NCBI RefSeq assembly: GCF_023078835.1
Contig: NZ_CP090898.1
Coordinates: 784,045 to 808,044, forward strand
From: Synechococcus sp. NB0720_010
Lineage (GTDB): Bacteria; Cyanobacteriota; Cyanobacteriia; PCC-6307; Cyanobiaceae
Direction of reading: 5' to 3'
Length of the DNA stretch: 24,000 nucleotides
Shown: piece by piece, positions 1 to 20,566 of the stretch
Layout: every line of letters starts with the position of its first letter
Numbering within the stretch: the stretch's first letter is position 1
Made by a program: the position numbers and the translations under genes
The notes under the pieces: generated by a model
Told to the model about the DNA's origin: nothing
Seen by the model: the letters and a program-made list of their open reading frames with translations, nothing else
Database searches by the model: none

Positions 1-1
1 A

Positions 2-3000
2 ACCATATTTGCATTTAAGAGCGCACAAATCAATGAGCTCGAAATATTCGAAGTGCCTGGCCTCCAAATCGAAGGAGATGGATCCTGGTCCTTCGATCCA
101 GGAAACGCTGCTTACAATTCTCTACCTACAGGCGAAGAACTCACTATTCAGGTAACCTACTCAGCGACTGATGCAGATGGGCTAGTCGCCACTAACTCGT
201 TCACAATAACCGTTGAGGGCACGAATGATGATCCGTACTTGACGGATGAGGACTCACTTACTGAATTACTGGATAACGCAATCGAAGATCAAGGCAGAAA
301 CGGGAATCCATACACAATTGACCTCGATTTGCTAACATCTCCATTTGAGGATTATGACTACGCAGGAGGGACGAGTGAATCTCTAGAAGTCAAGGGACTT
401 AATGCATACAAACAAAACGGCGACGTCGCTGGCACTTTCGAAAGGATTGGCAACACATTCGTTTTCAGCCCCTTTAAGGATGTAGAAGGACTAATCAAGA
501 TTGAATATATAGTTACCGACAATAATGGAGGAGGAGTCACCGCTGAGACAACTCTCTTCATTGAAGCAGTCAATGATGCTCCAGAACTTGGAGCATTACC
601 CGATGGTGGGTTAGTCATGAAGAACGATGCTCAGGAAGACACTCCATTTACATTCACAGATGTTGACCTCATTAAAGGTTTCATAGATCCAGACAATGCT
701 GCTGATGGACTCGCAGACCTAAGTCTAAATCTCGAAATTACTGCCATTCCGTCAAGTCCCAATGGCACAATCCAGGTTGCTTCTTACTCTGGTCAACTCA
801 CATCCTCTGACGTCGATGCCTCCGGCACCCCCGACTTCTCACTGATCAGCGCTGAAATACCAGGTCTCTCGATCAATTCCGATGGTTCATGGTCATTCGA
901 CCCAACAAATGCCGCCTACGACAGCATCGAAAAAGACGACTCTCAAACGATCACTGTCAGCTACAGCGTCACTGATGATCAAGGCGCAACAGATCAAAAC
1001 TCTTTCACCATCAATCTCACTGGAACTGACTCCACCCCAATTGCGACATTCACTTCAGACCTGGAGGGGCCAATCCAGGCGATAGGGAGCTACATCTTTA
1101 GCCCAGACGAGAACTTCAATGGCACAACACAAGTTGACTTTGAGATAAGTGATAACGCTGGAGCGAAGACTTTCGGTTCAAAGTTTGTTGTCATAGCAGC
1201 AGACAATGATTCCCCAACAATCTCACTGCCCAATAATTCCTATGACGCATCTGTGGTTGCCGGCACGGCGCAGTTCTTAAGTACGAATGCTTTTGGTTAT
1301 CAGGACATCGAGGGGGATCCCATCCAAGGAGTTCGGATTGAGATTCCAAATGCGTCAGTTGGTTTGTTGCAATCGAGCAGCAAGGCATTCAGTGTGGAGG
1401 GATCACAAAGTCTCCCGACCGAAAAGATAGGAGAAAAGACTTACGTTACTGTCAGTCGTGATATATTAGTCAACAACAGGCTGTATTTTGAGGCTAAGAA
1501 TACTGCTATTGGCCTGAGCTCTACCTTGTCGTTCATGGTCAACGATGGAACAAACTGGTCAACTGAGGCAACAATTAAACTATCCGTCACGGGGGCTCCA
1601 AAATCGGCCGCCGAAGCCTTCAAAGAAGCCCAATACAAAGTCAACTTCGAGGAAATACTGGGAGACGATCGCTATTGGGCGATCAAACCAGTTGTTGCGG
1701 CAGCAGGCCTCACCAATGATGAAGCCATTACAGCTCTAAAGAAAGCTCCGAGCTACGCTAATTACGCAGCCAACGAAGTCGAGTATCTCAATGATATTGG
1801 TTGGTTCAATATTGTCTATCTCAACGAAGAAGGACTGCGAGAAGAAACGAGCTTGGATGATCTTTCAGCAGTTGATGCGATAAGCCTTGCGAATAGTCCG
1901 TTAGACACTATCTTCAATTCCGAGGAAAAGGAGTTCATCTCCGCACAACTTAACGATTCCCAAAACAAAACTATCGAAAGCACATTCTCTGCGATTGCAA
2001 ATGTCACGATCGAGGGCTTTAGTAATGCAGTTAATTCTGATGGGCTATCCGAAAATGTTATCACTAGTGCCGTAGATAAGATTAGACTTATCGCATCAGG
2101 TTCATTTAGTACAGATGAGCAGTACCTCCAGTTCTCTGCCTCATCCGTTGCGTTACGCGCCACGATTGCATCGCTCAAGTCAGGCTCGCTTCTATCCTCT
2201 ATATCTGATCAAGACCCACAGATTTTCAACCTTCTTGACGGGGTCAAGGAATCGAAGCTCGCCGGAATCGCTCAATCGCTGGGATCCCTTCCTGAGGGAG
2301 TCTCGTACACACCAGATCAATTAACTAGGCTCTCAAAGCTTGCTGACAAGGCAGCGAGTGTCGGAAACACGGAAGCTCTCAAACTCGCAACCCGGACTAT
2401 TGTTGATGGCAAAAAGTATTCTTCACTCGCTGACGGGGATTTGGACGACCTTCCAGCTGACGAGAAAGCTAGAGCCCTTACTCTAAAAGATGAATATTTG
2501 AGCATCCAAGCACTGAAAGTTCAAGCAGGACTAAGCAACCTCAGCGTTAACACTGCAATTAACAGCGGAGCCATTACCTCCCTAGATAACGACGATGCCA
2601 AGCGACTTGTTCTGTCAGAGCTACAAAGTAAGTCTCTTGGTGTAAGCGAGAATTCAAACGAGTTGGCAAGCGTGTCGAACAGTGCTGCATACCTTAATTC
2701 ACTTGATAGCCTGGTTATTGCTGCAACAAAGATAGAAGACAGTGGGAAGGCTGCTGAAATACTTGAACTAGCTCAGACGCTGGACAACGTCGCCCTTAGC
2801 TTCGCAGACAACCCAGAAGAACTAGACAGGGTGGTAGCACTTCAAGAACAGCTAGAAGAGGATTTCAAGTATTCAGTTACATTCAACGAGGATGAAATCC
2901 GCGCTCACTACGCTAAGAACTGGGTGACCATCAGTAGCATCTCCGGAAATGTCATTACTTTGGGAGAAGGTGACAACGCCCTCAAAGATGCCAATGGCAC

Positions 3001-5104
3001 TCCTATCACTACCATAGGAGAAGAATATGTTCTATTCAAGGAAAATGTGAGCCGGGAAGATATTGCACTAGTGCTCATCAACTCACGGAAGTTCCAACCG
3101 AAAGCAATTTCATTGGATGGGAGCAATCCTGCAACAATCACGCGCGCCGACACAGCTATCTACTCAGCAACAGACAAGGATGGAGACTCCTATATCGGAT
3201 CAATGGATGGCTCATATATTCTTAATGGCGAGACGTACTACTACAACACTGAAAACCCGACGGCCAATCGGTTCACTATCACCATTCCCGACGATTACGA
3301 TGAAAATCTGGCCGAAGCTGGTACTCAGATGTCCTATTTGATGAATTACACAGCCGGCGAAATCGACTTCGACAAAAACACCGGAGCATTTACCTTTACC
3401 GCCTCAAGCGGTATAAGCCCGGACAAAGTTGGATACGACCCTGACTCAGTTGACACTGTCCTGAAATATGTCTCAGAAGCAGACCTGCTGAAGTATGGGG
3501 CAACTGCTGGAGATGGAGAAGTTGGTGAAAGAGAGTTCAGCTGGAACAAAACCAATGAGAACCCAAATATCTTCGGCGATGGCGAACCGCTGATTGATTT
3601 AGACGGCAACATCATTACCAAAGCCGGCTGGTACGACTTCACACGCCGTGTCAATGAATTTGGAGTCGCGACAGGCGATGGTGGAGAATACCTCTACGCC
3701 AACTTCTCCAATGGTGTGTGGACTGCAAGTACAGACATCAATCAACTAGGTGAGATCGGAACACTTAGAGTTATTGGTCTAAGGCTTCGTTTTACTGACA
3801 ATAGGTTCGGCGACAAGGATCCAACTGCTGGGACAATTATTGACCCCTTCGGTACCGCAAAAGCAACCGGTAGCGAAGCCGAAGTCCTAGCTGGACGTGC
3901 AGCGATTTCCAATCCGGTCAAAGCCTCAACGATTACACAACAGGTAACACAGGTAACAACGACTCAGACAGTTTCTATCCCTTACAAACCAGAACTTGTT
4001 GATCTGAAGCCTGATTCTTCAGGTGTTGGATATGACGATCCAGGCAATGCACCAGGCCTTGGAATTGATGCCCGTGGAGAAGATCTCGATGCCATGTCTG
4101 TCGGAGATGGTGTCGGCACGGGCTATGGAGAAGGTTCAGGTCAAGGCGTCAACAACTCCAGTGGCTCCGGCGAGGAAGCCATGACCCTCACCCAGGCCCT
4201 CACCGCCTTTGCAGAGGGGGAGGGAGAAGGAAACTCCGAGTCCAACAAAGGTCAAAACGCTGAAGGCCAAGGCGCCGGTACTGGTGGTGAAGCTGCCCTT
4301 GGAGAAGACCAATCACCAAAAACCCAACGCAAGCGCGGTCTACTTCTGCAGCCCCTGGTCGATCAACTCGCCAGCGGCGCCGATGAACTCAAGACCAGCT
4401 CCACCCTGCTCAAGAACCTCAGCGAGGGTTCGGTCATGGGCACCAACCTGCTCGATGCCCTCGCCCTCGGTGCCGGCGTCCTCTACGTGCTCTATGCACC
4501 CAAGGCCGTTGAAACCGGTAAAAAGGGCTTCCGCGGATTGGTCAACCGCGTCATGAAGCGGGGTGGTGTCAATGCCGTCATTCCCGAGCAGAACCTACTC
4601 TCGGTCTTCGTCATGAAGATGCCCAATGGCGGCGAGCGCCTGATGGCCACCCGCGTCGGCTTGGGCGGCATGGAAGTGTTAGCCCAGCAGGATCTGCCGG
4701 CAGATGTCCGTGTCGATGCCGCAGGCAGCCAGACCCAGATCGACTACGCCATGAAGCAGTTGATCGCCAAGCTGGGCGCCCCCAATGCCGACCTGCTGCT
4801 GCTTGGTCCCAAGCTCAAGGGCCAAGCCGCGCTACTCAAGAACATGGCCAAGCAGACCCAACTGCTGAATACCCAGGACCTCACGAGCAGCCTCTCCTCC
4901 TGCAGCGCCACCGAACTGGAGGCCCTGCAGAACTGGCTCAACAAACCCTCCAGCACCCTGCCGGAGACCAGCCCGGTCTACGGCCAGATGCTGCAGCAGA
5001 TCACCGCTTATGCCGGTGCCATGCCGGCAGAGCAGGCCAACATGGCCGGCCTGATTGAGCTCAGCGTCGCCATGGGCTGGAGCCAAACCGGCAAAGCGGC
5101 CTAG
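2..5104 (+). CDS. Giant cell-surface repeat protein, 5'-partial (VCBS/cadherin-like modules, long non-repetitive region, Gly/Glu/Ser linker, hydrophobic segment, unique ~200-aa C-terminal domain)
   Basis: The reading frame is open from nt 2 to the TAG at 5102-5104. My hand translation of nt 2-52 finds no stop. The residues before the track's GTG at 53 (ELEIFEVPGLQIE) match the lead-in of the second repeat copy (ISAEIPGLSIN), so the gene continues upstream of the window. The first ~520 aa contain beta-type modules ending in GTNDDP / AVNDAPE / GTDSTP / AADNDSP plus the motif DGSWSFDP.NAAY, typical of VCBS/cadherin-like repeats in giant T1SS-type adhesins. I saw no GGxGxD RTX nonapeptide repeats. 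Confidence 0.85.
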   Translation, partial: TIFAFKSAQINELEIFEVPGLQIEGDGSWSFDPGNAAYNSLPTGEELTIQVTYSATDADGLVATNSFTITVEGTNDDPYLTDEDSLTELLDNAIEDQGRNGNPYTIDLDLLTSPFEDYDYAGGTSESLEVKGLNAYKQNGDVAGTFERIGNTFVFSPFKDVEGLIKIEYIVTDNNGGGVTAETTLFIEAVNDAPELGALPDGGLVMKNDAQEDTPFTFTDVDLIKGFIDPDNAADGLADLSLNLEITAIPSSPNGTIQVASYSGQLTSSDVDASGTPDFSLISAEIPGLSINSDGSWSFDPTNAAYDSIEKDDSQTITVSYSVTDDQGATDQNSFTINLTGTDSTPIATFTSDLEGPIQAIGSYIFSPDENFNGTTQVDFEISDNAGAKTFGSKFVVIAADNDSPTISLPNNSYDASVVAGTAQFLSTNAFGYQDIEGDPIQGVRIEIPNASVGLLQSSSKAFSVEGSQSLPTEKIGEKTYVTVSRDILVNNRLYFEAKNTAIGLSSTLSFMVNDGTNWSTEATIKLSVTGAPKSAAEAFKEAQYKVNFEEILGDDRYWAIKPVVAAAGLTNDEAITALKKAPSYANYAANEVEYLNDIGWFNIVYLNEEGLREETSLDDLSAVDAISLANSPLDTIFNSEEKEFISAQLNDSQNKTIESTFSAIANVTIEGFSNAVNSDGLSENVITSAVDKIRLIASGSFSTDEQYLQFSASSVALRATIASLKSGSLLSSISDQDPQIFNLLDGVKESKLAGIAQSLGSLPEGVSYTPDQLTRLSKLADKAASVGNTEALKLATRTIVDGKKYSSLADGDLDDLPADEKARALTLKDEYLSIQALKVQAGLSNLSVNTAINSGAITSLDNDDAKRLVLSELQSKSLGVSENSNELASVSNSAAYLNSLDSLVIAATKIEDSGKAAEILELAQTLDNVALSFADNPEELDRVVALQEQLEEDFKYSVTFNEDEIRAHYAKNWVTISSISGNVITLGEGDNALKDANGTPITTIGEEYVLFKENVSREDIALVLINSRKFQPKAISLDGSNPATITRADTAIYSATDKDGDSYIGSMDGSYILNGETYYYNTENPTANRFTITIPDDYDENLAEAGTQMSYLMNYTAGEIDFDKNTGAFTFTASSGISPDKVGYDPDSVDTVLKYVSEADLLKYGATAGDGEVGEREFSWNKTNENPNIFGDGEPLIDLDGNIITKAGWYDFTRRVNEFGVATGDGGEYLYANFSNGVWTASTDINQLGEIGTLRVIGLRLRFTDNRFGDKDPTAGTIIDPFGTAKATGSEAEVLAGRAAISNPVKASTITQQVTQVTTTQTVSIPYKPELVDLKPDSSGVGYDDPGNAPGLGIDARGEDLDAMSVGDGVGTGYGEGSGQGVNNSSGSGEEAMTLTQALTAFAEGEGEGNSESNKGQNAEGQGAGTGGEAALGEDQSPKTQRKRGLLLQPLVDQLASGADELKTSSTLLKNLSEGSVMGTNLLDALALGAGVLYVLYAPKAVETGKKGFRGLVNRVMKRGGVNAVIPEQNLLSVFVMKMPNGGERLMATRVGLGGMEVLAQQDLPADVRVDAAGSQTQIDYAMKQLIAKLGAPNADLLLLGPKLKGQAALLKNMAKQTQLLNTQDLTSSLSSCSATELEALQNWLNKPSSTLPETSPVYGQMLQQITAYAGAMPAEQANMAGLIELSVAMGWSQTGKAA
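74..235 (+). repeat. VCBS-like 54-aa module, copy 1 (GDGSWSFDPGNAAYNSL...FTITVEGTNDDP)
   Basis: This 162-nt in-frame module aligns with copy 2 at 878-1039 at 29 of 54 residues by my hand alignment. The DNA is diverged at many synonymous positions. Confidence 0.7.
878..1039 (+). repeat. VCBS-like 54-aa module, copy 2 (SDGSWSFDPTNAAYDSI...FTINLTGTDSTP)
   Basis: Same length (162 nt) and same motif order as copy 1. It is preceded by EIPGLSIN, compared with EVPGLQIE before copy 1. Confidence 0.7.
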
Positions 5105-5113
5105 GACCACAGC

Positions 5114-5133
5114 GGGGGCTGCACCCAGCCCCC
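5114..5133. terminator. GC-rich hairpin between convergent genes (candidate bidirectional intrinsic terminator)
   Basis: gggggctg (5114-5121) / loop cacc / cagccccc (5126-5133) forms a perfect 8-bp stem. It lies in the 38-nt gap between the giant-gene stop (5104) and the stop of the minus-strand HExxH gene (5143). There is no clear U-tract on either side, so its function as a terminator is not certain. Confidence 0.5.
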
Positions 5134-5142
5134 CCTCAGTCC

Positions 5143-5631
5143 TTAGCGGCAGCGTTCTTTTAAGGCCGCAATGATCAGCGGGAATGCCTTGGGGTTGCCC
5201 TGCATCGCGAATGCCTCACGCTCCACGTCGAACTTGGCGTGGGCATAGTTGCGGTAGAGGATTCCAGCCACCTCGCGGTCAACGGCATTCACCATCGACG
5301 TTGGCCAGCCGATGGTCTCCAGCTTCCCTGTCTTGCAGCCCTGGGCTCCATGGACGGCCTCATGAATCAAGGTTTGGCGGCCAATGCCCAAGTCCACTGC
5401 AATCGGTGCCACCCAAATGATCTTTTTGCGGGAGTTCGTTGCGCCATAGGCCCCCTGAATCGGCGGCTTTTCAAAACGCACTTGATAACCCGCCTGCTGC
5501 AAGGCCTTCACCAAGGGCAGCCAATCAGCCGGCCATTGGGGGGCCGCACTAGCACGGAGGGCCGCAGCACCACACAACAAAGCCAACGCTCCAAATGAGC
5601 AGGCCAGACGCCGAAATGGAATGATTGTCAT
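5143..5631 (-). CDS. Secreted small HExxH-motif protein (putative zinc metallopeptidase-like), last gene of the minus-strand string
   Basis: The 162-aa protein has an N-terminal signal-peptide-like region (MTIIPFRRLACSFGALALLCGAAALRASA|AP, with an AxA site). It contains an HEAVH motif in LIHEAVHGAQGC and a downstream acidic stretch (DVEREAF) that could supply a third ligand. GGAG lies 11 nt upstream of the ATG (5643-5646 on the minus strand). I did not recognise a family beyond the motif. Confidence 0.6.
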   Translation of the reverse strand: MTIIPFRRLACSFGALALLCGAAALRASAAPQWPADWLPLVKALQQAGYQVRFEKPPIQGAYGATNSRKKIIWVAPIAVDLGIGRQTLIHEAVHGAQGCKTGKLETIGWPTSMVNAVDREVAGILYRNYAHAKFDVEREAFAMQGNPKAFPLIIAALKERCR

Positions 5632-5646
5632 GCGGTCATCAGCTCC

Positions 5647-6321
5647 CTACTGAACCGTGAGGTTGCGGCCGGAATTGCCCCAGAAATAGATCGGGTCGTC
5701 CTTGTACCAAGGCTCCCAACCGATCGGCACCTTGTACTCCAGCGCCTTGTTCTTGATGGCTCGGTAGGCCTCAAAGCCATCGTTCTCCAGCACAACAAAC
5801 ACCGCTTTTTTCTCCTTGGCCAAACGCTGCATCGTTTGATCCAGCCAACCTTCTTTCTTTTTGAGATCAGCCGCCAGGACCGTCGGCGGACCATTGCGGC
5901 GAATCAGGCCATTGGCATGGCTCACGCTCATGCCGATCGGTCCGACTTGGGCCTCGCGCTTCCAGCCATCCAATTCCCGATCACAAGCTTCCTTCTCTGG
6001 CGGCAGCAGTTGTTCGCAGCGGTTGACTTCACCCGCCCGCTGCCGGTCGAGCTTCACCATCTGCTCCACCGCAGGTTGCAAATCCCACAGACCCTCCTTC
6101 GCTGCTTGCAGCAGCACGAAGTTGCGGGAGCTTTTTTGCTGCATTGGCGCCTGAATGTTCAGGGCACTCGAGGTGGCGAAGATGCCGGTCAAAGAACCAA
6201 TCAGCGCCATCACCCCCACCACGTTGGAGAGGATGTCCATCAGGCCGTCACTGCTGTCGCTAGTAACTCCTCCGCCACCACGGCGGCTACGGCGTCTCAG
6301 CAGGAGGGAACGCTGACCCAT
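5647..6321 (-). CDS. ExbD/TolR-like single-pass membrane protein, paralog 2 (224 aa)
   Basis: The N-terminus is basic (RRRSRRGGGG). Asp residues sit immediately before one TM helix (DGLMDILSNVVGVMALIGSLTGIF). The periplasmic domain's C-terminal part (AVFVVLENDGFEAYRAIKNKALEYKVPIGWEP) parallels paralog 1 (YLVIGVRPSAFRDFESIRSKAEARRLSIGYEP). Its start overlaps the upstream stop (TAATG at 6319-6323), implying translational coupling. Confidence 0.65.
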   Translation of the reverse strand: MGQRSLLLRRRSRRGGGGVTSDSSDGLMDILSNVVGVMALIGSLTGIFATSSALNIQAPMQQKSSRNFVLLQAAKEGLWDLQPAVEQMVKLDRQRAGEVNRCEQLLPPEKEACDRELDGWKREAQVGPIGMSVSHANGLIRRNGPPTVLAADLKKKEGWLDQTMQRLAKEKKAVFVVLENDGFEAYRAIKNKALEYKVPIGWEPWYKDDPIYFWGNSGRNLTVQ

Positions 6322-6791
6322 TAACCGGCTCCCTCTACTGCGGGCATCCCTACCGGCAGCTGCACTTTCAAGCCAGCCTCGAGGGGCTCATAGCCAATCG
6401 AGAGGCGTCGAGCCTCGGCCTTGGAGCGGATGGACTCAAAGTCGCGGAAGGCACTGGGACGCACGCCGATCACCAAGTACTGGGGCTTGGAGTTCTTGGC
6501 GATGGCATCGAGGAACTGCTCGAGACCCTGGTCTTTGAGATTCCAAGTCCGGCGCTGTCCTTGGCCGATCACCTCGACCTTGCCGCCGCCCTCACAAAGG
6601 ATGTAATTCGCTTCTTTGCCTTTTCCTTCTCCCCCCGCGGGGAGCAATTGAATCGCCTGAACGCCGGGCTTGATCTGCAGCGCGCAGATCACAATCAGCA
6701 GGGACTGCACGCCAATCGTGGCGGCCATGATGTTGAGGAAGGAGAAGAGATCCACTCCCTCGTCATTCTTTTTTCCCCTGCGGCGCCCCAT
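6321..6791 (-). CDS. ExbD/TolR-like biopolymer-transport protein, paralog 1 (156 aa)
   Basis: The layout matches E. coli ExbD. There is a basic N-terminus (MGRRRGKKNDEG), then an Asp preceding the TM (VDLFSFLNIMAATIGVQSLLIVI, compared with ExbD DINVTPFIDVMLVLLIIFMV), then a ~110-aa periplasmic alpha/beta domain. There is no OmpA/MotB-type peptidoglycan-binding region. The ATG lies 3 nt after the MotA-like stop. Confidence 0.7.
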   Translation of the reverse strand: MGRRRGKKNDEGVDLFSFLNIMAATIGVQSLLIVICALQIKPGVQAIQLLPAGGEGKGKEANYILCEGGGKVEVIGQGQRRTWNLKDQGLEQFLDAIAKNSKPQYLVIGVRPSAFRDFESIRSKAEARRLSIGYEPLEAGLKVQLPVGMPAVEGAG

Positions 6792-6794
6792 GAA

Positions 6795-8117
6795 TCAACC
6801 CCGGCCAAACCAGCGCCGGCGGGCCGGTTCCAGCCGGGCCACGCTGGCGTTCAGGGTTTCAATCGAGCGGCGCAGTTCCACCAGCGCCTGCACCTGATCC
6901 ACCCGCTCCGCCTCTGTGTAGCTGCCGGTGGACAGCCGCTCGAGTCGGCTCAACACAGGTTCGAGTGCCCGCAGGGATTGATTGAGCTCCTGGGAGAGAC
7001 CATCCATGCTGCCCCGGATCACATCCGCTTGGTCCTGCAGGCTCAGCCGCGCCTCGGCCACGCCCTCAACCGAATCACGTACAAGATTGGTGAGCGGGGA
7101 GAGCTTCTCCAGCGTCGCCTCCGTCAGCTGATTCGCGTAGGCCTGGGCCGGCTCCACAAGAACCGAAGGATCCGGCAGGTGCTTCTCAAACGCATCACTG
7201 ATCAACGCACCCAGGTCTTCTGAGGCGAGCCCGGTCAGCTGCTCAATCGCTTCAGCTTGGGGTTGCTGCTTCGTCCCCGTTGCTTCGGGGCCATCGGGGA
7301 TCTCGCCATCGCCTGTGGGGCTGAGGGCCATCACGGCTTCGCGCACTTCGCCATCGATTTGGCTGAGCAGGCGATCCTCCAGGCGCTCACAGGCATTGAG
7401 CGGGAAGGTGAAGATCACCGAGACCACCAGAGCCAAATAGGTGGTGTCGAATGCCGTACCCAGACCCGAGGTCACCTTGGTCAAGCCATTCTTCAAACCA
7501 TCGACGTTGTCGGCATTGCTGAGCACCGCATCAAAGGAACCAACGGCCGAGGACATCCCGATCACGGTGCCGATGAAGCCCAGCAACGGAATCGCCCAGA
7601 GCAGCACTTTCGGCAGACTGAAGCTGGATTGACTCGAGAGCTCATAGAGCTCCACGTCGGAATCGGCCGAGCGCTCCAACTGGAACGAGGAACCGGTACT
7701 GCGCCAAACATCCAGCAGCCGCAGCAAACGCTTGCCGACCAGCGAGGCCGAGCGCTCCGCTTGGTTGGTCAAGGCATCGAGGTCGCCACTACGGATCGCC
7801 TGGGCAATCGAGAGATCAAAGGCCAGATAGGCCTTCTTCTCGCGTTGAAGGATCCGCCATTTATTGATGATGAAGGCCAGCAACATCCCGCCCATCGCCA
7901 GCACGAAGACCTGGGTGGGGCCCCGTTGATGCAGAAAATCGTGGAAGGGCATCCCCTGGGGCGTGGCGATGGCCCAGAGCAAGAAGCCCCCAATCCCGCC
8001 CGGCACCAGCCAGCGCAGCAGCTTGGGATCCAGGTCATTGCCCAGGCCCAGGCTGACCGTGGGTGTGGCGGCAACGCTGGTGTTGGTTTGGGTTAAGGGC
8101 GGGAAATTAGCGACCAC
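6795..8117 (-). CDS. MotA/ExbB/TolQ-family ion-channel protein with extended C-terminal helical tail (440 aa)
   Basis: Four hydrophobic helices fall at about aa 36-52, 68-86, 170-189 and 219-240, with an ~83-aa loop between TM2 and TM3 (a MotA-like topology). The family core PLLGFIGTVIGM...GLGTAFDTTYLALVVSVIFTFPLN resembles ExbB GLLGTVWGIM...GIAEALLATAIGLVAAIP. Residues ~265-440 are an extra Leu/Glu/Arg/Gln-rich helical region. The start is a GTG (8115-8117), and the next Met would delete TM1. Confidence 0.8.
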   Translation of the reverse strand: MVANFPPLTQTNTSVAATPTVSLGLGNDLDPKLLRWLVPGGIGGFLLWAIATPQGMPFHDFLHQRGPTQVFVLAMGGMLLAFIINKWRILQREKKAYLAFDLSIAQAIRSGDLDALTNQAERSASLVGKRLLRLLDVWRSTGSSFQLERSADSDVELYELSSQSSFSLPKVLLWAIPLLGFIGTVIGMSSAVGSFDAVLSNADNVDGLKNGLTKVTSGLGTAFDTTYLALVVSVIFTFPLNACERLEDRLLSQIDGEVREAVMALSPTGDGEIPDGPEATGTKQQPQAEAIEQLTGLASEDLGALISDAFEKHLPDPSVLVEPAQAYANQLTEATLEKLSPLTNLVRDSVEGVAEARLSLQDQADVIRGSMDGLSQELNQSLRALEPVLSRLERLSTGSYTEAERVDQVQALVELRRSIETLNASVARLEPARRRWFGRG

Positions 8118-8160
8118 GAGCGGGGACTCAAAGGTTCGGGGAATTCAGGTCAAAGACGGG

Positions 8161-8487
8161 TCAGGCAGAGCGGGTGTTGTCCCACTCCTGCCACTCGACC
8201 TCCACATCACCCACACCAGCGCTGGCCGGGGGCGGGATGCGGGTCAGCAGATCGTTCGGCAAGCCCAGGCGTTGGAACACGGCCTTGCGCTGCTCAACGG
8301 GCATTGCTGAGAAGGAGCGGACGACGTCGCGCACCTTGTGCTCGTTGTACACCAGGCCCATCAACTCCTCCTGGTCCTTGGCCTCGAGGGCCTGGAACCA
8401 GCGCAGAAATTCATCAACGCGGCTGTTGAGATCAGTGGAACCAGTGGTCATGGGAGAGGCGGATGAGGTGAGAGAGGAGTGCTGCAC
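8161..8487 (-). CDS. Small hypothetical protein between the HlyD and MotA-like genes (96-108 aa)
   Basis: The ORF is co-oriented and fills the gap between 8529 and 8117. The track start is a GTG at 8487; an ATG at 8451 (MTTGSTDLN...) is an alternative. It has no signal peptide or TM and I recognised no family. Coding status is supported mainly by position and non-degenerate composition. Confidence 0.45.
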   Translation of the reverse strand: MQHSSLTSSASPMTTGSTDLNSRVDEFLRWFQALEAKDQEELMGLVYNEHKVRDVVRSFSAMPVEQRKAVFQRLGLPNDLLTRIPPPASAGVGDVEVEWQEWDNTRSA

Positions 8488-8528
8488 AGAGCGCTAAGGG
8501 CCGTGCACCAAAAAGGGGAGCGGCTGGG

Positions 8529-9704
8529 TCATTTCGATGAGCGGATGCTGCGCAGGGAATCGAAGGCCTTCTGCACCGCATCGGTGAGCAGGGTGATCAC
8601 CCGCTTGTCGCGCAGGACCAAGTTGGCCTGAACGCTCTGGCCTGCACTGATCTCGTAGCGATCGCGCCCCTTGGTGAGGTAATCGCGATCGAGACTGATG
8701 TAGGCCGGGAAGCGGGGCTGGGGGTTCTGCTGGTCCGGCTCCAGCGGCAAGGTGCCAACGGATTTGAGCTTCCCATCGATCGACCCGAACTGGGTGTAGG
8801 GGAAAGCATCGACGCGGACTTGGGCCGCCATTCCCTTGTTCAAGAAGCCCACATCGCGGTTGGTCACATAGACCTTCGCCTCAAGAATCCCGCCCGGAAC
8901 CACCTTCACCAAGGTCTCGCCAGCCGCCGCGGCGTAGCCCGGGCTTGAGGGGACCAAGCCATAGACCACGCCATCAAGGGGGGCCCGCAGCACCTCTTTG
9001 TTCTGGGTGTCCTGAACCTCCACCAGCTGACGCTCCAGATCCGCCAGCTCCCGCAAAGACTCCTGCTTCATCTTCAGCAGCTGGGCTTGCACCTCCTGGA
9101 GGTTGGCCCGGGCCTGGGCAATCTCCGATTCCAACTGCTCAACCCGGTTGCGCTGCTGAAGCACCTGCATCCGCTGGATCCCCCCTTCACGCGCCAAGGG
9201 AACGATGTTGTTGTAGATCTCCTTTTCAGTGGAGAGGGCACGGCCCAAACCATTCATCCGCTCCCGCAAACTCTGCTCGCGGGACTGGATCGAGCGGCTC
9301 TCTTCGTTAAAGCGGGTGGTCTCGAGTTTGAGCTGTTTCTCGAGGGTCTCCGCCCGCTTTTTGGAGACCTCCGCATCGAGGCGAATCAGCGCTTCACCAG
9401 AGCTGACCTTCTGGCCTTCCTTCACCAGGATGTCCTTCACGACCCCCGCGAATGGCGCCTTAAGCGGGCGTTCCGCACCGAGGGGCTGCAGCTCCCCTTG
9501 GGCCAGCACCACCTCATCAATCTTGGCGAAGCAGGCGAAGACGAAACCAAAGGAGGCGCTGCCAATGATCGTCCAGGCCAAGGCGCGGCTCCAGACCGGT
9601 GCCGGACGCAGACGGACCTCCTGAGGGTCCATCGGCCTGACCACCAGGGCCGACATATTGGCCTTCACAAGATTGGACTTCGAGGGGGGCTTCTGATCCA
9701 TCAC
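8529..9704 (-). CDS. HlyD-family membrane fusion / periplasmic adaptor protein of a type I secretion system
   Basis: The 391-aa protein has a short cytoplasmic N-terminus and one TM (WTIIGSASFGFVFACFA). A lipoyl-like segment follows (VLAQGELQPLG...VKDILVKEGQKVSSGEALIRLD), then a long coiled coil (aa ~110-235), a second lipoyl half and a beta-barrel. It directly abuts the ABC gene stop. The start is GTG at 9704 or ATG at 9701. Confidence 0.9.
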   Translation of the reverse strand: MMDQKPPSKSNLVKANMSALVVRPMDPQEVRLRPAPVWSRALAWTIIGSASFGFVFACFAKIDEVVLAQGELQPLGAERPLKAPFAGVVKDILVKEGQKVSSGEALIRLDAEVSKKRAETLEKQLKLETTRFNEESRSIQSREQSLRERMNGLGRALSTEKEIYNNIVPLAREGGIQRMQVLQQRNRVEQLESEIAQARANLQEVQAQLLKMKQESLRELADLERQLVEVQDTQNKEVLRAPLDGVVYGLVPSSPGYAAAAGETLVKVVPGGILEAKVYVTNRDVGFLNKGMAAQVRVDAFPYTQFGSIDGKLKSVGTLPLEPDQQNPQPRFPAYISLDRDYLTKGRDRYEISAGQSVQANLVLRDKRVITLLTDAVQKAFDSLRSIRSSK

Positions 9705-12700
9705 TCAAACCTCCTGCTGGTGATACAACGTGGCATAACGACCATCGAGAGCCATCAACTCTTCATGGGTTCCCTGCTCAACAAGGGCTCCTTGATCCAT
9801 CACCAAGATGTGATCGGCGGCTTTCAAAGAGGCCAGGCGGTGGGTAATAAAGAAGACCGTGCTGCCCTTGTAGAGCTCCATCAAATTGGCCGTCAGACGC
9901 CGCTCGGTGTCGACATCCAATGCGCTGGTGGCCTCGTCCAGCACCAGAAGGCGCGGACGCCGCAGGATCATCCGAGCAATGGCCAAGCGTTGACGCTGGC
10001 CGCCGCTTAGGCCTGCACCCCGCTCACCTACGGAGCTGCTGTAGCCCGACGGCATCGCCTGGACAAAATCGTGAGCGCAAGCCACCTGGGCGGCCAGAAC
10101 CACCTCTTCGAAGGAGGCATCGGGACGGGTCAGGGCAATGTTGGAGAGGATCGTGCCGTCAAACAGCAGGCTGTCCTGCGGCACCACACCGATTTGAGCA
10201 CGCAGGGAATAGAGGTCCACCTTGCTGATGTCGTTGCCATCAATGCGAATCAGGCCCTCTTCCGGTTCATACAAACGGGTGAGCAATTTGAGCATTGTGC
10301 TCTTGCCCGAGCCCGAGCTGCCGACGACCCCCACAAAGGAGCCGGGGGGAATGTCGCAACTGACATTGCTGAGCTGAAGTTTGCCCTGCTCGGCAAAGCG
10401 GAAGCTGACGCCGGAGTACTCAACCTGGCCGACGATCGGCGGGATCGGTGGTTTCTGCTCTCCAGTGATTTCCAGCTCCTGGGGGTGATCGACGATGTCC
10501 GCCAGGCGCTCCAGCGACAGGGCGGTTTCCTGGAAGTTCTGCCAGAGGTTGGCCATCCGCAGCAGCGGGCTGGTGACATAGCCCGCCAGGATCCGGAAGG
10601 CGATCAGCTGACCCAGGGTCATCTGACCTTTGAGCACCAGCGAGGCACCGATCCAGAGGACGATCAGACCGGAGAGTTGCTCCAGGAACTGACTGGCCGA
10701 TCCGGCTGCCGTGCTGGTGACGACGTTGCGGAAGCCCGACTGGATCTGTCCGCCGTAGAGCTGTTGCCAGCGCCAACGGCTATGGATCTCCATGCTTTGG
10801 CCCTTGATCGTCTCCATCCCGCCGAGGGTTTCCACCAGATGGCTCTGGACCCGTGAATTGGCTTCGGCCTGCTCCCGCAGCTGCTTACGGATGATGGGTG
10901 CCGTCAGGGCGGTTAAGCCGACAAACAGCGGCACCACCGCCAGGGCCCAGAAGGTGAGTTGCACGGAATAGAGCAACATCACCGCGATGTAGATCACCGC
11001 GAAGACCGCATCCAAGATCACCGTCAGGGCCGTGCCGGTAAGGAAGCGTCGGATCTTCTCCAGTTCATTCAGGCGGCTGCTGACTTCACCCACCGGGCGG
11101 TCGGCGAAATAGCCCAGGGGCAGCCGCAACAGGTGATCGATGATCGTCGATCCCAGGCTGATGTCGATTCGATTGGTGGTGTCGGAGAAGAGATAGGTGC
11201 GCAGGGACGAGAGCACCGCCTGGGCCAAAGCCATCGCCACCAGCAGCGTGCCCAGCACGTTCAAGGTGCTGACGTTGCCCTGGCTGATCACCGCATCAAT
11301 GATCTGCTGAATCAGCAGCGGGTTGAGCAAGCCAAACAGCTGCACAAAAAAGCTGGCGATCAGCACCTGAACCAGCACGCCCTTGTGCTGCTTGAGAGCC
11401 GGCAGGAACCAAGCCAGACCAAAGCGCTTTTTGGGGGTCTTGTGGCTGCGCTCAATGCAGAGCACCGGCAGGTTGCCCTCCTCATCGCGCCCCTCCAGGG
11501 CACTGATCGCTACCGGGCCCTGGCCCGAGGCGGGATCACTGATCAGGACTTGCCCGGCCATGTCGCTGGCCCAGATCACCACCGGACCACTGCCGCCCAT
11601 CACCAAGGCTGGAAGCTGCAAGCGCGGGATCTGGGCGTCATTCACGCTCAGCTGCGAAGCGCGCAGCCCCATCAAATCGGCAATGGCCGCCAGCTGCAGC
11701 AGGCCAATGCCCGCTCCGGTGGTGTCCCGCTGGATCTGGTCTTCGAGGATCCGGGTCAGCACGTCCTTGCGGAAGGGCAGATCGAAGTAACGCGCCAGCA
11801 TCCGCAGCGCCGCCATCGGCCCCTCCACAGGCCCCTCGCCGCTGAGATGGGGGAAGGTGCCGTCATCCCCCAGGCGGCCGTACCAGTCCTCAAGAGCCTC
11901 CTGTTGACGCTCCACAGCGACGATCGCGGCGGAGCTTTCCTGCCAGTCGGGCTCCAGGAGTTCAGCTTCAGTGGGCTCGGCCTCTTCCTCGCCGGCCTCC
12001 GGGGCCAGCACCATCACCGGTGGCCGCTCCATCGGCGGCGTGGCGCCCCCCTTGGCCAGCAAACGGGCGGGCAGCTTGCCCTTCACCGTCAGCTTCAGCG
12101 GGCCCAGGAGTTCTTCACCGGGGTTCGCCCCGGCCACATTGCTGCTGCTGACGAGCCAGGGCCCCCAGCTGGAGCCGAATTGATGCTCACCCGGGGGCAA
12201 CAGCAACACCTGCTGCTCACCCGCCGCCTCTTCCAGTTGATTGCTAGCCCAGTCACGAAGGTCCCGGCGCTCGGGCAGCCGCGGCGCTGGGCTCGAAGAC
12301 GCGACGGCGAACAACTCCTCGAGACTGGGCTGGGCCAAGGCCAACTGCAGTGGCGGGTGCTCCATCACCACCTGCAGGAAGACCGCCTGGGGCATCAGCC
12401 AGAGCTGGCTCGGCTGGGAGGCGGCCAAAGCCTGGCCCGTCACACCCCGCAAGAGTCCGATGTCGCCTGCTGTGTCACCCGGGGAAAGCCGGCGCAGCGT
12501 GAAAGGAACGTCCTGCTCATCGAGCGCCAACAGGCGCATCTGCCCCTTGGCCAGCAGGGCCACACCCGGCGGCAGAGCGTTGTAGTCGTACAGCTTCTGC
12601 CCCGGCCTCAGCTGGAGCGCTTGCAAGGACTCAGCAATGCGCGCCTGAGAGCTCTTCGGCAGCTTGGAGAAGGGCTCCCAGCTACTGACCAACCGCAATG

Positions 12701-12716
12701 CAAGGGTCAGCTGCAT
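9705..12716 (-). CDS. Three-part ABC exporter: N-terminal cNMP-binding-like domain, C39-like (apparently non-catalytic) domain, 6-TM ABC transporter with NBD (1003 aa)
   Basis: The NBD motifs are Walker A GVVGSSGSGKST, signature LSGGQRQRLAIAR and Walker B LLVLDEATSALD. The TMD spans about aa 440-720. Aa ~10-125 look like a CAP-effector/cNMP fold (LRPGQKLYDY...GDTAGDIGLLRGVTGQALAAS...LWLM). Aa ~290-425 resemble a C39 peptidase-like domain (GPMAALRMLARYFDLPF...LPALV...VVIW...VLISDP). Confidence 0.9.
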   Translation of the reverse strand: MQLTLALRLVSSWEPFSKLPKSSQARIAESLQALQLRPGQKLYDYNALPPGVALLAKGQMRLLALDEQDVPFTLRRLSPGDTAGDIGLLRGVTGQALAASQPSQLWLMPQAVFLQVVMEHPPLQLALAQPSLEELFAVASSSPAPRLPERRDLRDWASNQLEEAAGEQQVLLLPPGEHQFGSSWGPWLVSSSNVAGANPGEELLGPLKLTVKGKLPARLLAKGGATPPMERPPVMVLAPEAGEEEAEPTEAELLEPDWQESSAAIVAVERQQEALEDWYGRLGDDGTFPHLSGEGPVEGPMAALRMLARYFDLPFRKDVLTRILEDQIQRDTTGAGIGLLQLAAIADLMGLRASQLSVNDAQIPRLQLPALVMGGSGPVVIWASDMAGQVLISDPASGQGPVAISALEGRDEEGNLPVLCIERSHKTPKKRFGLAWFLPALKQHKGVLVQVLIASFFVQLFGLLNPLLIQQIIDAVISQGNVSTLNVLGTLLVAMALAQAVLSSLRTYLFSDTTNRIDISLGSTIIDHLLRLPLGYFADRPVGEVSSRLNELEKIRRFLTGTALTVILDAVFAVIYIAVMLLYSVQLTFWALAVVPLFVGLTALTAPIIRKQLREQAEANSRVQSHLVETLGGMETIKGQSMEIHSRWRWQQLYGGQIQSGFRNVVTSTAAGSASQFLEQLSGLIVLWIGASLVLKGQMTLGQLIAFRILAGYVTSPLLRMANLWQNFQETALSLERLADIVDHPQELEITGEQKPPIPPIVGQVEYSGVSFRFAEQGKLQLSNVSCDIPPGSFVGVVGSSGSGKSTMLKLLTRLYEPEEGLIRIDGNDISKVDLYSLRAQIGVVPQDSLLFDGTILSNIALTRPDASFEEVVLAAQVACAHDFVQAMPSGYSSSVGERGAGLSGGQRQRLAIARMILRRPRLLVLDEATSALDVDTERRLTANLMELYKGSTVFFITHRLASLKAADHILVMDQGALVEQGTHEELMALDGRYATLYHQQEV

Positions 12717-12845
12717 TCAGTGGCTGAGTACTCCGAAAAAACTATCAGAACGTGGGGCTACACCTGGCCGCCTGGGCTACCAACAGCAGACGATCTCAGC
12801 GATCTGCACGAAGCGAAATCATGCAGGTTTTGCATAAGTCCCCGA

Positions 12846-13535
12846 TTACTTGGCCGGCGTAGCGCGCATCTGCTCCTGGAGCCACTGATCACCGAGCTCC
12901 AAAGCCAGGTCCCGGCGGTAGCCCTGGTTGAACACCGCTGGCTGCAGCTCATCCAGGCGAAGCAGCACCCAGCCCCCCTCCGCCGGACGCGGAGGCCAGA
13001 TGTGGCCGGGCTTACTCACCCGCAGCAACTCACTGAGAGCCTCAGGGAGCTGGCCCAAGGGCGTCGGTCCCTGCTTCCCCGTTGGCAGTTGCCCCGTCAC
13101 GCCAGGCAAGGTGCACCAGAGCTGCTCAAAACTGTTTTCCCGCTCTGAGAGCTGAAGAAAGAGCTCCTGGGCCATCGCCTCGTCCTCGACCCAGATCAGG
13201 GAATAGACCACCTGATCGAGTTGGCTCTTGCGCTTCAAAAACAAAGTGGAGGCCTGAGCTCGGAAGCGCTTCTCGCAGAGAAACTGCCAGCGCAGTTGCC
13301 GCTCAGCTAAGGCTTTGAGGTCCTCTTCGGAGAGGCCGTAGGACTGAATCCAGCGTTGGGCCTCGGCCTGGGTCTTCAATCCCTGGCGCTGCAGCCAGAT
13401 GGGGATTGCCTGCTCCTGTTGCTCCGGAGTGAGGCCAGGCTCCTTGGCCAGCAAGGCATCGCGAGTGAGCTCCCGCTGGACCAAAGCGCCATAGCCCCAA
13501 GCCGCCAGCTGCTGCTGCGACTTTTGATCGATCAC
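12846..13535 (-). CDS. Parvulin (PpiC)-like domain protein, probably degenerate PPIase/chaperone (229 aa)
   Basis: The C-terminal ~100 aa follow the parvulin pattern (VVYSLIWVEDEAMAQELFLQLSE..NSFEQL....GP.PLGQLPEALSELLRVSKPGHIWPP...GGWVLLRLDE). The N-terminal half is helical, SurA/PrsA-like. The GTG start at 13535 is uncertain. This is a pattern match by eye only. Confidence 0.45.
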   Translation of the reverse strand: MIDQKSQQQLAAWGYGALVQRELTRDALLAKEPGLTPEQQEQAIPIWLQRQGLKTQAEAQRWIQSYGLSEEDLKALAERQLRWQFLCEKRFRAQASTLFLKRKSQLDQVVYSLIWVEDEAMAQELFLQLSERENSFEQLWCTLPGVTGQLPTGKQGPTPLGQLPEALSELLRVSKPGHIWPPRPAEGGWVLLRLDELQPAVFNQGYRRDLALELGDQWLQEQMRATPAK

Positions 13536-13566
13536 GGTCGAACCCGAAGGTGTCCTTTAACGGTAA

Positions 13567-14559
13567 TTAAGCCGCCAGATAGGCGTGCATCTCCTCGGAG
13601 CGGCGGCGCAGCTCTTCGTGGGCCTTGCGCTCGAGGCTGCGGGCACGGTCGCGGCTCATCTCAAGCGCACGGGCAATGGAGCTCAGGCTCATGGGCTCCT
13701 CAACATCGATGCCGTAGCGCATCTTCAGCACGCGGCCCTGCAGGTCCGGCAGCTGGTCCAAGAGTCCCCGCATGTCCATGCGCAGGCACTCCCCATCCAC
13801 CAGCTCTGACGGCTGGGTGCCATCGGCGGCCAGCAGATCCAGCAGCTCCGTGTCATCGCCGTCGCCCACCTTCGTCTCCAGGCTCACGGGCTGGCGCGCG
13901 CGGCAGAGCAGGTCCTTCACCTCCTCCTCAGGAAGGTCCACAAACTCGGCCAGCTCCGTCACCGTCGGCGTGCGGCCCAGCTCCTGGCTCAGCTCACGCT
14001 GCCCCTTCTTGAGCTTGTTCAGCGTCTCGGTGATGTGGATCGGCAGCCGGATCGTTCGGCTCTTCTCAGCAATCGCCCGCGTGATCCCCTGGCGGATCCA
14101 CCAGTAGGCATAAGTCGAAAACTTGTAGCCCCGGGTCGGGTCGAACTTTTCAACACCCCGCACCAAGCCAATCGTTCCCTCCTGGATCAGGTCCAGAAGC
14201 TCCATGTTCCGCTTGGTGTACTTCTTCGCCACGCTCACCACCAACCTCAAGTTGGCGGCCACCATCCGCTCCTTGGCCCGCTGACCACTCCTCAGGCGCT
14301 TCTTGAGCTGAACCTGCGTCAGACCCGCTTCCTTCGCCAGCACCGCAGGCGAAGGCTTCTCCACACCCTCACGGCTCGCGAGTTCCTGCTCCAGCTCCTC
14401 CAGCGCCACCAGCTCTTGGACCTGGCGACCCAAGGTGATCTCCTGCTCGTGGGTCAGCAGCGGCACCCGGCCGATATCCCGCAGATACGAGCGCACCAGG
14501 TCCGTTCCACCGGCCAGCGCGGTGTCGCGGACAGCACGAAGGATCGGAACAGAGGGCAT
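13567..14559 (-). CDS. Sigma-70 family RNA polymerase sigma factor (group-2-like, 330 aa)
   Basis: Region 1.2/2 reads YLRDIGRVPLLTHEQEITLGRQVQ and GTIGLVRGVEKFDPTRGYKFSTYAYWWIRQGITRAI. Region 3 reads IRLPIHITETLNKLKK. Region 4 reads LKMRYGIDVEEPMSLSSIARALEMSRDRARSLERKAHEEL. I trimmed the track ORF (13567-15030) to the ATG at 14559 (cat at 14557-14559). The upstream 157 aa are Ser/Arg/Pro-rich and antisense to the pseudouridine synthase gene. Confidence 0.9.
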   Translation of the reverse strand: MPSVPILRAVRDTALAGGTDLVRSYLRDIGRVPLLTHEQEITLGRQVQELVALEELEQELASREGVEKPSPAVLAKEAGLTQVQLKKRLRSGQRAKERMVAANLRLVVSVAKKYTKRNMELLDLIQEGTIGLVRGVEKFDPTRGYKFSTYAYWWIRQGITRAIAEKSRTIRLPIHITETLNKLKKGQRELSQELGRTPTVTELAEFVDLPEEEVKDLLCRARQPVSLETKVGDGDDTELLDLLAADGTQPSELVDGECLRMDMRGLLDQLPDLQGRVLKMRYGIDVEEPMSLSSIARALEMSRDRARSLERKAHEELRRRSEEMHAYLAA

Positions 14560-14572
14560 CAGCGAAAACGAA

Positions 14573-14596
14573 TTACGAAACCCAGGTGTTTCGTAA
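14573..14596. promoter_or_regulatory. Perfect 9-bp inverted repeat with 6-nt spacer in the divergent sigma / pseudouridine-synthase intergenic region (candidate operator or 5'-UTR hairpin)
   Basis: ttacgaaac (14573-14581) ccaggt gtttcgtaa (14588-14596). It lies 14-37 nt upstream of the sigma start codon (14559) and ~64 nt upstream of the + strand ATG at 14660. I cannot name a regulator. Confidence 0.35.
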
Positions 14597-14659
14597 AGCT
14601 GTTGCGGAACCGTATCACTTTTTTCTGATGAGCAAAATGCTTTTGGGCACAGCGCTGAG

Positions 14660-15367: not shown

Positions 15368-15384
15368 GAAGCTGATCGGCCGGA

Positions 15385-18982: not shown

Positions 18983-19063
18983 CCTATCTGGCGTGAGCGC
19001 AACAACGGCGTCAGCCCCAGGCGACCTACGTCAAAGTGGTGCGTCTTTGAACGCCGCCCGTCC

Positions 19064-20486: not shown

Positions 20487-20566
20487 GAAGGGATCGGGCT
20501 CCAGGGTGCTGACCGCGTGCCGGGCGGCTTCTACGATCAGGGTTCTACCGTCCAGCCAGCGGCCCC

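Follow-up and report, generated by a model that had tools for sequence, protein, structure and literature searches.

The polymorphic toxins of the Rhs and CdiA types and the central domains of flagellins and pilins combine a conserved handle with a variable part that is swapped, and a GC step is found within their genes. The giant open reading frames (ORFs) of the genomic islands of marine Synechococcus are reported to have a deviant tetranucleotide frequency, to be unevenly distributed across strains and to 'rarely share similarities among strains' (PMC2441476, PMC4949707, PMC9387257). In Salmonella, the SiiABCDEF system of pathogenicity island 4 (SPI-4) comprises a secretion system of type I (T1SS), the giant adhesin SiiE and the MotAB-like proton channel SiiAB (PMC6272769). 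The present analysis concerns a giant ORF of Synechococcus sp. NB0720_010, situated at the 5' edge of a stretch of 24,000 nucleotides (nt) of contig NZ_CP090898.1, which is called the window and to which all coordinates refer, and about 50 related loci (labelled L001, L002, etc.) with which it was compared. It is likely that this ORF constitutes a single, real gene, that it encodes a giant surface protein and contains the edge of a hypervariable region, and that its large 5' part, the exodomain, is an allele exchanged by recombination. The boundary is intragenic: a C-terminal module (C-module) and the secretion cluster downstream of it are vertically inherited and host-adapted, as opposed to the hypervariable exodomain, the alleles of which cross-cut the host phylogeny and retain their own composition.

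By description the window gene is like the giant ORFs of marine Synechococcus, including SwmB, in that it encodes a very large picocyanobacterial surface protein with cadherin/VCBS repeats. However, in the marine reports the whole gene is atypical, whereas in the window gene the boundary is internal and the C-module of ~310 amino acids (aa) is host-like and conserved. The host also seems to differ from the hosts of the marine giant ORFs in being Vulcanococcus-like, and instead of fitting the marine setting given in a preliminary description of this DNA it looks like a Vulcanococcus-type (freshwater/brackish) picocyanobacterium. With Rhs, CdiA, flagellin and pilin genes it has in common that a conserved, host-like part and a strain-specific part of another composition are united in one ORF, the latter being replaced by recombination at a defined junction. 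Their polarity is reversed in the window gene, where the bulk of the N-terminal side is variable and the C-terminus is conserved. Furthermore, its variable part, with a length of thousands of codons, represents a divergent allele with an unchanged architecture, and a single fixed junction motif is absent. Scans of the window with Pfam and NCBIfam revealed no Rhs/YD or FHA repeats, no VENN and no toxin/immunity features. Membership of the Rhs/CdiA group was rejected because the variable part is N-terminal and because a DPFGT motif in the protein differs in spacing and position from PxxxxDPxGL. What is found is what characterizes a mosaic surface gene, i.e. a conserved part common to strains, a discordant variable part and a break in composition at the junction. 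The swapping of surface proteins by recombination is clear here but not unprecedented. In the literature searched, the family of the C-module, an island boundary within a gene, the decoupling in two directions of exodomain composition from that of the host and a picocyanobacterial cluster of T1SS genes with a ZorA-like gene appear to be undescribed.

The composition of the ORF was determined in terms of total GC and of the G+C content at the third codon position (GC3). Its parts are as follows.

2..5104, forward strand: giant ORF of 1700 codons without a stop, truncated by the 5' edge of the window.
2..4060, forward strand: hypervariable exodomain with low GC3 (GC 0.468, GC3 0.456), 1348 codons without a stop; its 5' end is open and its true start lies outside the window.
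44..1048, forward strand: extender domains, namely repeats of the VCBS, cadherin-like and bacterial Ig types, found with Pfam and NCBIfam.
1562..3031, forward strand: near-orphan middle region (aa 521-1010), without a Pfam match.
3032..3961, forward strand: pre-linker domain, named domain X (aa 1011-1320), family-wide and fast-diverging.
4022..4339, forward strand: low-complexity linker rich in Gly, Glu, Ser and Ala, containing the junction zone (~4055-4300) with the onset of homology and the switch in composition.
4283..4354, forward strand: highly conserved motif GGEAALGEDQSPKTQRKRGLLLQP, at which the conserved module starts and which is kept in all aligned homologs.
4442..4561, forward strand: hydrophobic segment TNLLDALALGAGVLYVLYAP that resembles a membrane helix and in which an Asp is invariant; a stretch rich in Lys and Arg comes after it.
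4583..5092, forward strand: C-terminal alpha/beta domain of ~170 aa (C-domain), according to an AlphaFold2 model.

Between nt 1 and 4020 the mean G+C was 28.1 per 60 nt (46.8%), between nt 4141 and 5104 it was 62.0% and in the remainder of the window 64.6%. The best change point for GC3 by maximum likelihood was found at nt 4346 (2-log support interval 4328-4391), with a GC3 of 0.457 upstream and 0.825 downstream. Its log-likelihood ratio of 62.8 compares with a mean of 2.5 and a maximum of 7.3 in 300 permutations, which excludes chance as the source of the step. Going from the one part to the other GC3 increased from 0.46 to 0.83 and GC1 by ~0.1, and GC2 was essentially flat. As the third positions show by far the largest change, amino-acid composition is ruled out as the main cause, and the switch is mainly synonymous. 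Host genes inside the window have a GC3 of 0.68-0.82. Total GC already climbs from ~nt 4020, because the Gly/Glu/Ala-rich linker lifts GC1 and GC2. A fine GC3 profile showed a first patch of high GC3 at ~4140-4230, then a low-complexity stretch of low GC3 at 4232-4340 that is kept among relatives, and uniformly high values from ~nt 4346 onward. Given this order of patches the step spans ~200-300 nt, within the linker or on its 3' side. The seven counts of G+C in 60-nt lines on which the preliminary description was built (24, 25, 25, 32, 38, 37 and 39) are all exact, and its claim that the frame is unchanged across the switch agrees with the single open frame. Its figure of ~40-42% GC upstream was too low, since the lines picked happened to be low. 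The switch that it had placed within ~100-150 nt is indeed step-like in the computed GC3 profile but takes the longer distance given above, and the position that it had assigned to it, inside the linker, is right in so far as the 3' side of the linker is included, the best point being just beyond it.

Comparison with related loci revealed a boundary at the same place. Ten relatives were 74-91% identical to the window at the nucleotide level over 3-10 kb downstream, and none of them aligned upstream of the linker. The onset of the homology in blastn alignments, with the identity, was as follows for some of the relatives.

L008: onset at 4127, identity 91.4%.
L005 and L006: onset at 4086, identity 80% and 78%.
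L007: onset at 4160, identity 77%.
L002: onset at 4301, identity 75%.
L003: onset at 4265, identity 67-72%.

L016 was 80% identical, and L007, L021, L014, L002, L022, L026 and L024 were 75-77% identical, and the homology went on as far as 13.3 kb of the window. Across these relatives homology began at 4055-4412 (4055-4301 for all except L024), and the break lies in the linker, 45-292 nt upstream of the start of the C-domain core. Forty further loci were gathered with a profile of the C-domain (A4). All pairs within the clade of the window were 74-91% identical downstream, and ~300 nt upstream of the C-domain core the homology was gone, beyond which long collinear nucleotide alignments were absent. 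The few exceptions (L002/L022, L014/L018, L002/L026 and L026/L022) share an allele wholly or partly. At the protein level the C-domain was 81% identical to that of L002, compared with 31% for the adjoining 390 aa upstream. Thus the last ~1 kb of the gene and the cluster are kept among the ten relatives and the 5' part cannot be aligned as nucleotide sequence. A recombination junction at the linker, as had been proposed, is in accordance with the loss of homology at this position in the relatives, although a single fixed breakpoint is not present. The relatives originate from metagenomes, from Vulcanococcus metagenome-assembled genomes (MAGs) and from one single-cell genome of a marine Synechococcus (AG-670-A05). 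In 16 of the 49 loci (L005-L008, L025, L027, L031, L032, L035-L037, L041, L043, L046, L049 and L052) the distance from the end of the contig to the C-domain core downstream of it is ~900 nt or less. Breaks in metagenome assemblies thus tend to lie where the hypervariable part begins, which fits the coexistence of several alleles per sample.

The abruptness of the step and the frequent ending of metagenome contigs near the junction could also be expected if the join at ~nt 4000-4350 were an assembly chimera of two organisms. This is extremely improbable. The Logan assembly of SRR18042580 (L009) was 100% identical to the window over 1-13742, and it prolongs the open frame by 164 nt; it may have been made from the same reads and therefore tests the assembler and not the sample. 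In addition, dozens of independent samples and the single-cell genome have the order of cadherin/VCBS repeats, pre-linker domain, linker and C-domain within one ORF, and homology of the pre-linker domain at the protein level ties both sides of the junction to one family. On account of the identical Logan assembly and the recurrent architecture a chimera was judged unlikely.

A very unlikely explanation of the same boundary is that two genes are involved, i.e. that a gene for a giant secreted protein continues, accidentally or through read-through, into another gene, which encodes a membrane protein of ~309 aa and has its ATG near nt 4175. High GC3 and nucleotide homology both start just upstream of this ATG, proteins of 309 aa beginning at that Met have been called in several metagenomes, and in L002 a deletion of 17 nt in the linker separates the giant ORF from an ORF of 271 aa. 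However, L001 and L005-L008 have an open frame across the junction, and in L005-L008, as in nearly all short-read loci, it stays open up to the start of the contig. The Met is not kept in more distant homologs, and a promoter-like site was not found near the junction, in a scan that is a weak test. The calls of 309 aa stem from contigs that end just upstream. A separate 309-aa gene was therefore rejected, as these entries are gene-caller starts at an internal Met with the upstream frame open. The deletion in L002 (6450-6560, equal to L023) shifts the frame, such that the giant ORF stops and the 271-aa ORF holds the C-module; as L022 is 99.3% identical and has an open frame, it represents either an error in the assembly, phase variation or a pseudogenisation of recent date.

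That the two parts of the gene have different histories followed from the amino-acid identities of domain X and of the C-domain to those of the window.

L016: domain X 54%, C-domain 88%.
L034: domain X 52%, C-domain 49%.
L010 and L011: domain X 50%, C-domain 57% and 49%.
L001: domain X 44%, C-domain 46%.
L014, L018, L002, L024 and L026: domain X 30-35%, C-domain 79-83%.

Over 24 loci the identities of domain X and of the C-domain were uncorrelated (Spearman rho -0.07, p 0.75), which shows that the histories are decoupled. The loci closest in domain X were L016, L034, L010 and L011, three of which are from low-GC hosts and have C-domains that are only 49-57% identical. Direct evidence of exchange within the family was obtained from three pairs of loci, in which the exodomain is 12-15 points more identical than the flanks: L012-L003 (78.3% over 2.8 kb, flanks 66.6%), L053-L051 (84.0%, flanks 69.7%) and L047-L051 (82.7%, flanks 68.8%). 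The breaks in these pairs lie 377-640 nt upstream of the C-domain core. By extension we infer an exchange for the exodomain of the window itself.

The relation of both parts to the host was examined by regression of GC3 over 25 loci. GC3 of the C-domain followed that of the host with a slope of 1.00 (r 0.95); for the exodomain the tracking was weak (slope 0.51, r 0.63). In high-GC hosts the exodomain GC3 was below that of the host, for example in the clade of the window, in which hosts have a GC3 of 0.70-0.80 and exodomains of 0.39-0.65. In low-GC hosts the exodomain was above the host (L010 0.61 against 0.375, L011 0.62 against 0.36 and L004 0.49 against 0.38), these values and that of L003 (~0.62) being derived by greedy ORF picking from long-read assemblies rich in frameshifts. 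Since the polarity is reversed in low-GC hosts, mutation in one direction, such as would follow from the loss of GC-biased conversion, cannot explain the data. The exodomains of L001 and L030 have a low, host-like GC3. One allele class comprises those of the window and of L016 and L034, with a nearly equal spectrum of third positions (A 0.25, C 0.30-0.37, G 0.13-0.16 and T 0.26-0.28) in hosts with a GC3 of 0.77, 0.73 and 0.39, respectively.

The exodomain itself begins with repeats that matched Pfam Cadherin_5 (1.3e-16) and Big_9 (1.5e-8) and NCBIfam VCBS_repeat (2.2e-14), tandem-95 (2.3e-20) and T1SS_rpt_143 (2.4e-6), and the related loci encode dozens of such Ig-like, cadherin and VCBS repeat domains. 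The middle region had few matches (32-38% identity) among 1.84 billion cluster representatives, and with tblastn it matched only L016, L034, L001, L021, L010 and L011, at 23-46%. Within the exodomain only domain X has numerous relatives, with an identity of 50% for the best one; it contains the motifs KYVSEADL..YGA, AGWYDFTRR and, at nt 3788-3856, RFTDNRFGDKDP..IIDPFGT. Judged by the shared domain order the exodomain is a very divergent allele of one gene family. In some alleles short tandem repeats of the type 'xxQKAVDxxAVVLxE' are present between the pre-linker domain and the linker (L008 128-500, L001 ~3900-4700 and the proteins P0063, P0064 and P0109); the window allele is without them. 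The differing pre-linker sequence of L008 was considered as proof of module shuffling, but this was weakened: it may be an insertion, because L001 and P0109 place the repeats of the QKAVD type between domain X and the linker.

Several observations weigh against exchange as the general explanation. Distant high-GC clades have little or no switch, with an exodomain GC3 of 0.75-0.85 in L044, L045, L053 and L047, and in L038 and L039 it is 0.68-0.72 for a host GC3 of 0.74-0.83; the mismatch between exodomain and host is thus not universal. The exodomains of L016 and L034 are 68% identical, which is about the level of the flanks for this distance (67.9% for the flanks of L016-L010; the downstream part of L034 is too short), and this fits equally well with old alleles that balancing selection maintains or with synonymous composition being constrained. 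The quality of the long-read assemblies mentioned above counts on the same side. Finally, a donor of the window exodomain was found neither by a word-index search nor in a scan of the Joint Genome Institute (JGI) metagenomes, and the best match in an exhaustive HMMER search of the 1.84 billion cluster representatives was 50% identical, over the last ~300 aa only. Viral contigs had no match to the C-domain or to the pre-linker domain. As a donor or near-identical copy was not found, transfer into the window is inferred, and exchange is seen directly in other pairs only.

These points have to be considered together with an explanation that involves no transfer, and which is unlikely: the exodomain would diverge rapidly in place by diversifying selection, and its GC3 would be held at an intermediate level by a factor intrinsic to giant repeat genes. 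This could be selection on the mRNA or on the translation of long transcripts, or a lack of GC-biased gene conversion when there is no homologous partner in the population. It agrees with the domain order, by which the exodomains are alleles of one family, with the missing donor, with the fact that GC3 is depressed in all members of the clade of the window and with the clustering of exodomain GC3 at ~0.4-0.6 in many hosts. However, faster divergence in place cannot yield exodomains that are more identical than their flanks, as in the three pairs, and lost GC-biased conversion cannot lift GC3 above that of a low-GC host. In addition, distant low-GC lineages have exodomains that resemble the window's more than those of most of its own clade do, and the fully host-like exodomains of some high-GC clades imply that there is no universal constraint near 0.5.

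Exchange of exodomain alleles therefore remains the likely explanation, and it could operate as follows. The last ~310 codons (the 3' part of the linker, the RKRG motif described below, the helix-like segment and the ~170-aa domain) are inherited vertically and adapted to the host, in one segment with the genes for the HlyB-type ABC transporter, HlyD, a number of small conserved proteins and the MotA/ExbB-like protein. All that lies 5' of the linker, i.e. repeats, middle region and pre-linker domain, would be an allele from a pool of very divergent exodomain versions, the members of which may be swapped by recombination among picocyanobacterial lineages of differing genomic GC. The recombination would be of the homologous type, with a single crossover inside or close to the linker, which together with the conserved module would supply the 3' homology. 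The exposed exodomain would be diversified by the pressure of phages or grazers. If alleles are exchanged from such a pool, an exodomain keeps its own GC3 (~0.46 in the window) and the C-module has that of the host (~0.8). The step, the comparison of loci and the decoupled histories all support the mosaic structure that was originally proposed. The exodomain had then been described as foreign or exchanged; it is not unrelated foreign sequence but a divergent allele of its own family, with the domain order kept.

The C-terminus is the most conserved part of the giant protein and is co-inherited with the transporter. In the GGEAALGEDQSPKTQRKRGLLLQP motif R7, G8, L11 and P13 are invariant, and the strongly conserved motif that follows the linker is GEDQSPKTQRKRGLLLQP (the RKRG motif). 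The hydrophobic segment, with a mean Kyte-Doolittle hydropathy of ~1.7 over 18 residues (calculated by hand), is a putative membrane helix. Invariant residues in or near it are G42, L45, L46, D47, A48, L49, L51, G52, G54, L56, Y57, Y60 and P62. According to the positive-inside rule the alpha/beta domain is predicted to be cytoplasmic. AlphaFold2 modelled it (query residues 90-259) with a predicted local distance difference test (pLDDT) score of mostly 80-94 (range 71-94). A Foldseek search against the PDB gave nothing significant (best E 1.6e-3, TM 0.25, an RNase-H-like topology only), and no family was found for it in Pfam, NCBIfam or PADLOC. A profile search for it yielded 79 protein clusters, every one of metagenome or MAG origin. 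The C-terminal domain belongs to an undescribed family. The module would be conserved because it must fit the co-inherited machinery for export and anchoring.

Downstream of the giant gene the following genes are present, all of them on the opposite strand.

5143..5631, reverse strand: small protein with a signal-peptide-like N-terminus and a HEAVH (HExxH) motif, adjoining the 3' end of the giant gene; no family match.
5647-6321 and 6321-6791, reverse strand: single-pass membrane proteins of 224 aa and 156 aa, with paralogous C-terminal parts.
6795..8117, reverse strand: protein of the MotA/ExbB/TolQ family, 440 aa, with a long C-terminal coiled-coil-like tail; Pfam MotA_ExbB (PF01618) 1.7e-8, which exceeds the Pfam cut-off.
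8161..8487, reverse strand: small conserved ORF between the MotA-like and HlyD genes; no family match.
8529..9704, reverse strand: T1SS membrane-fusion protein of the HlyD family; Pfam HlyD_3 2.8e-19, NCBIfam type_I_hlyD 4.9e-52.
9705..12716, reverse strand: T1SS ABC transporter of the HlyB type; NCBIfam type_I_sec_HlyB 4.9e-209.
12846..13535, reverse strand: PpiC-like protein with weak matches to Rotamase_2 and TIGR04500, at the end of the cluster.

The order of the cluster genes was the same in every related locus examined, with the PpiC-like gene closing the cluster in all of them, and nucleotide homology to L002 and L003 reached window position 13307; past ~13.5 kb housekeeping genes are found. 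The HlyB and HlyD genes adjoin each other and are syntenic in all related loci, and the MotA-like gene is likewise syntenic in every one. The small HExxH protein has a syntenic ORF of 156-181 aa in L002, L004, L005, L007, L008 and L012, and the ORF at 8161..8487 has a counterpart of 90-96 aa at the same place in L002, L003, L004, L005, L007, L010 and L012. It is speculation, by analogy with LapG, that the HExxH protein is a periplasmic metalloprotease acting on the adhesin. The two single-pass proteins matched each other with an hhalign probability of 84% and E. coli TolR with one of 8%. They are without a match to a hidden Markov model. In both, an Asp stands where the hydrophobic segment starts, and by eye they resemble ExbD/TolR; the MotA-like protein may have them as partners of this type. 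The transporter contains cNMP_binding (N-terminal), Peptidase_C39, ABC_membrane and ABC_tran domains (Pfam); when the sequence was read by eye no Cys was seen at the expected catalytic position of the C39-like domain. The cyclic-nucleotide-binding domain suggests that export is regulated by cyclic nucleotide monophosphates (cNMP). The PpiC-like protein (TIGR04500 is a 'peptide maturation' family) may be a folding helper for the exported protein. The GC of the cluster (window 5100-13500) is slightly lower, 0.58-0.63 in most windows of 500 nt, compared with 0.64-0.70 for the housekeeping genes at 15000-24000, and the three small genes nearest to the giant gene have the lowest GC3 (0.68-0.74). 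Beyond the cluster, at 13567-15030 on the reverse strand, lies a sigma-70 ORF of 487 aa that matches sigma domains only from residue ~175 and the N-terminal extension of which overlaps a pseudouridine synthase ORF (14660-15367, forward strand). Because of this overlap with an ORF on the opposite strand its real start is probably much further downstream. Scans for Rfam families, tRNA genes, promoters and terminators gave nothing relevant.

Adjoining genes for HlyB and HlyD together with an array of extender repeats are what is found with giant repeat adhesins of T1SSs (of the RTX-adhesin, SiiE or LapA kind). RTX or HemolysinCabind matches were not obtained with Pfam or NCBIfam, either with the whole ORF or with its last 262 aa; this does not exclude export by a T1SS, because SiiE is also without RTX repeats. 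The nearest system-level analogue of the window cluster appears to be SPI-4 of Salmonella, which it resembles in having the gene for a giant adhesin with Ig-like repeats beside those for an ABC transporter, an HlyD-type adaptor, a protein of the MotA/ExbB family and small single-pass partners. It differs from SPI-4 in several respects. Homology to the Sii proteins is at the family level only, and the window ORFs that were scanned for an outer-membrane component included none of the TolC type, the gene for which may be unlinked. Moreover, the C-module comprises a folded domain and a segment that is like a membrane helix, in contrast to the secretion signal of ~60 aa of SiiE. The export of SiiE has been described as C-terminus first (PMC6272769), with which a cytoplasmic alpha/beta domain, as predicted here, would be hard to reconcile. 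Lastly, the MotA-like protein of the window is long-tailed and closest to ZorA. Its best matches are the ZorA models (PADLOC ZorA1, 1e-8) and a ZorA structure (PDB 8vvn_C, E 4e-4, partly covering the tail). Membership of the Zorya system was nevertheless rejected, as the NCBIfam score was 20 bits for a cut-off of 100 and ZorB, ZorC, ZorD and ZorE were not found with PADLOC. In contrast to Zorya, the MotA-like gene of the window has T1SS genes as its fixed syntenic neighbours throughout the family.

It is conceivable, but rather doubtful, that the C-module is a membrane-embedded coupling device, in which the helix with the invariant Asp and the ~170-aa inner domain tether the giant protein to a ZorA/ExbB-like proton-driven unit and to a cNMP-regulated T1SS. 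The exodomain would then be freely swappable from a group-wide pool with a composition of its own. If true, this would amount to an energised system that retains, tensions or moves a surface protein, analogous to SiiAB of SPI-4, with a possible bearing on non-flagellar motility or on the defence against grazers. The uncharacterised module and its MotA/ZorA-like neighbours in any case form a defined target for questions of export and retention at the cell.

Giant surface proteins are thought to decide how phages and grazers see picocyanobacteria, and they are mostly absent from assemblies because contigs break in them. As the hypervariable region ends at a defined linker beside a module of ~310 aa, the C-domain profile (A4) can serve as an anchor for such loci in metagenomes. 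The mismatch of GC3 in two directions indicates that alleles move between lineages that are more than 20 points apart in genomic GC, which bears on the reach of gene flow among these organisms.

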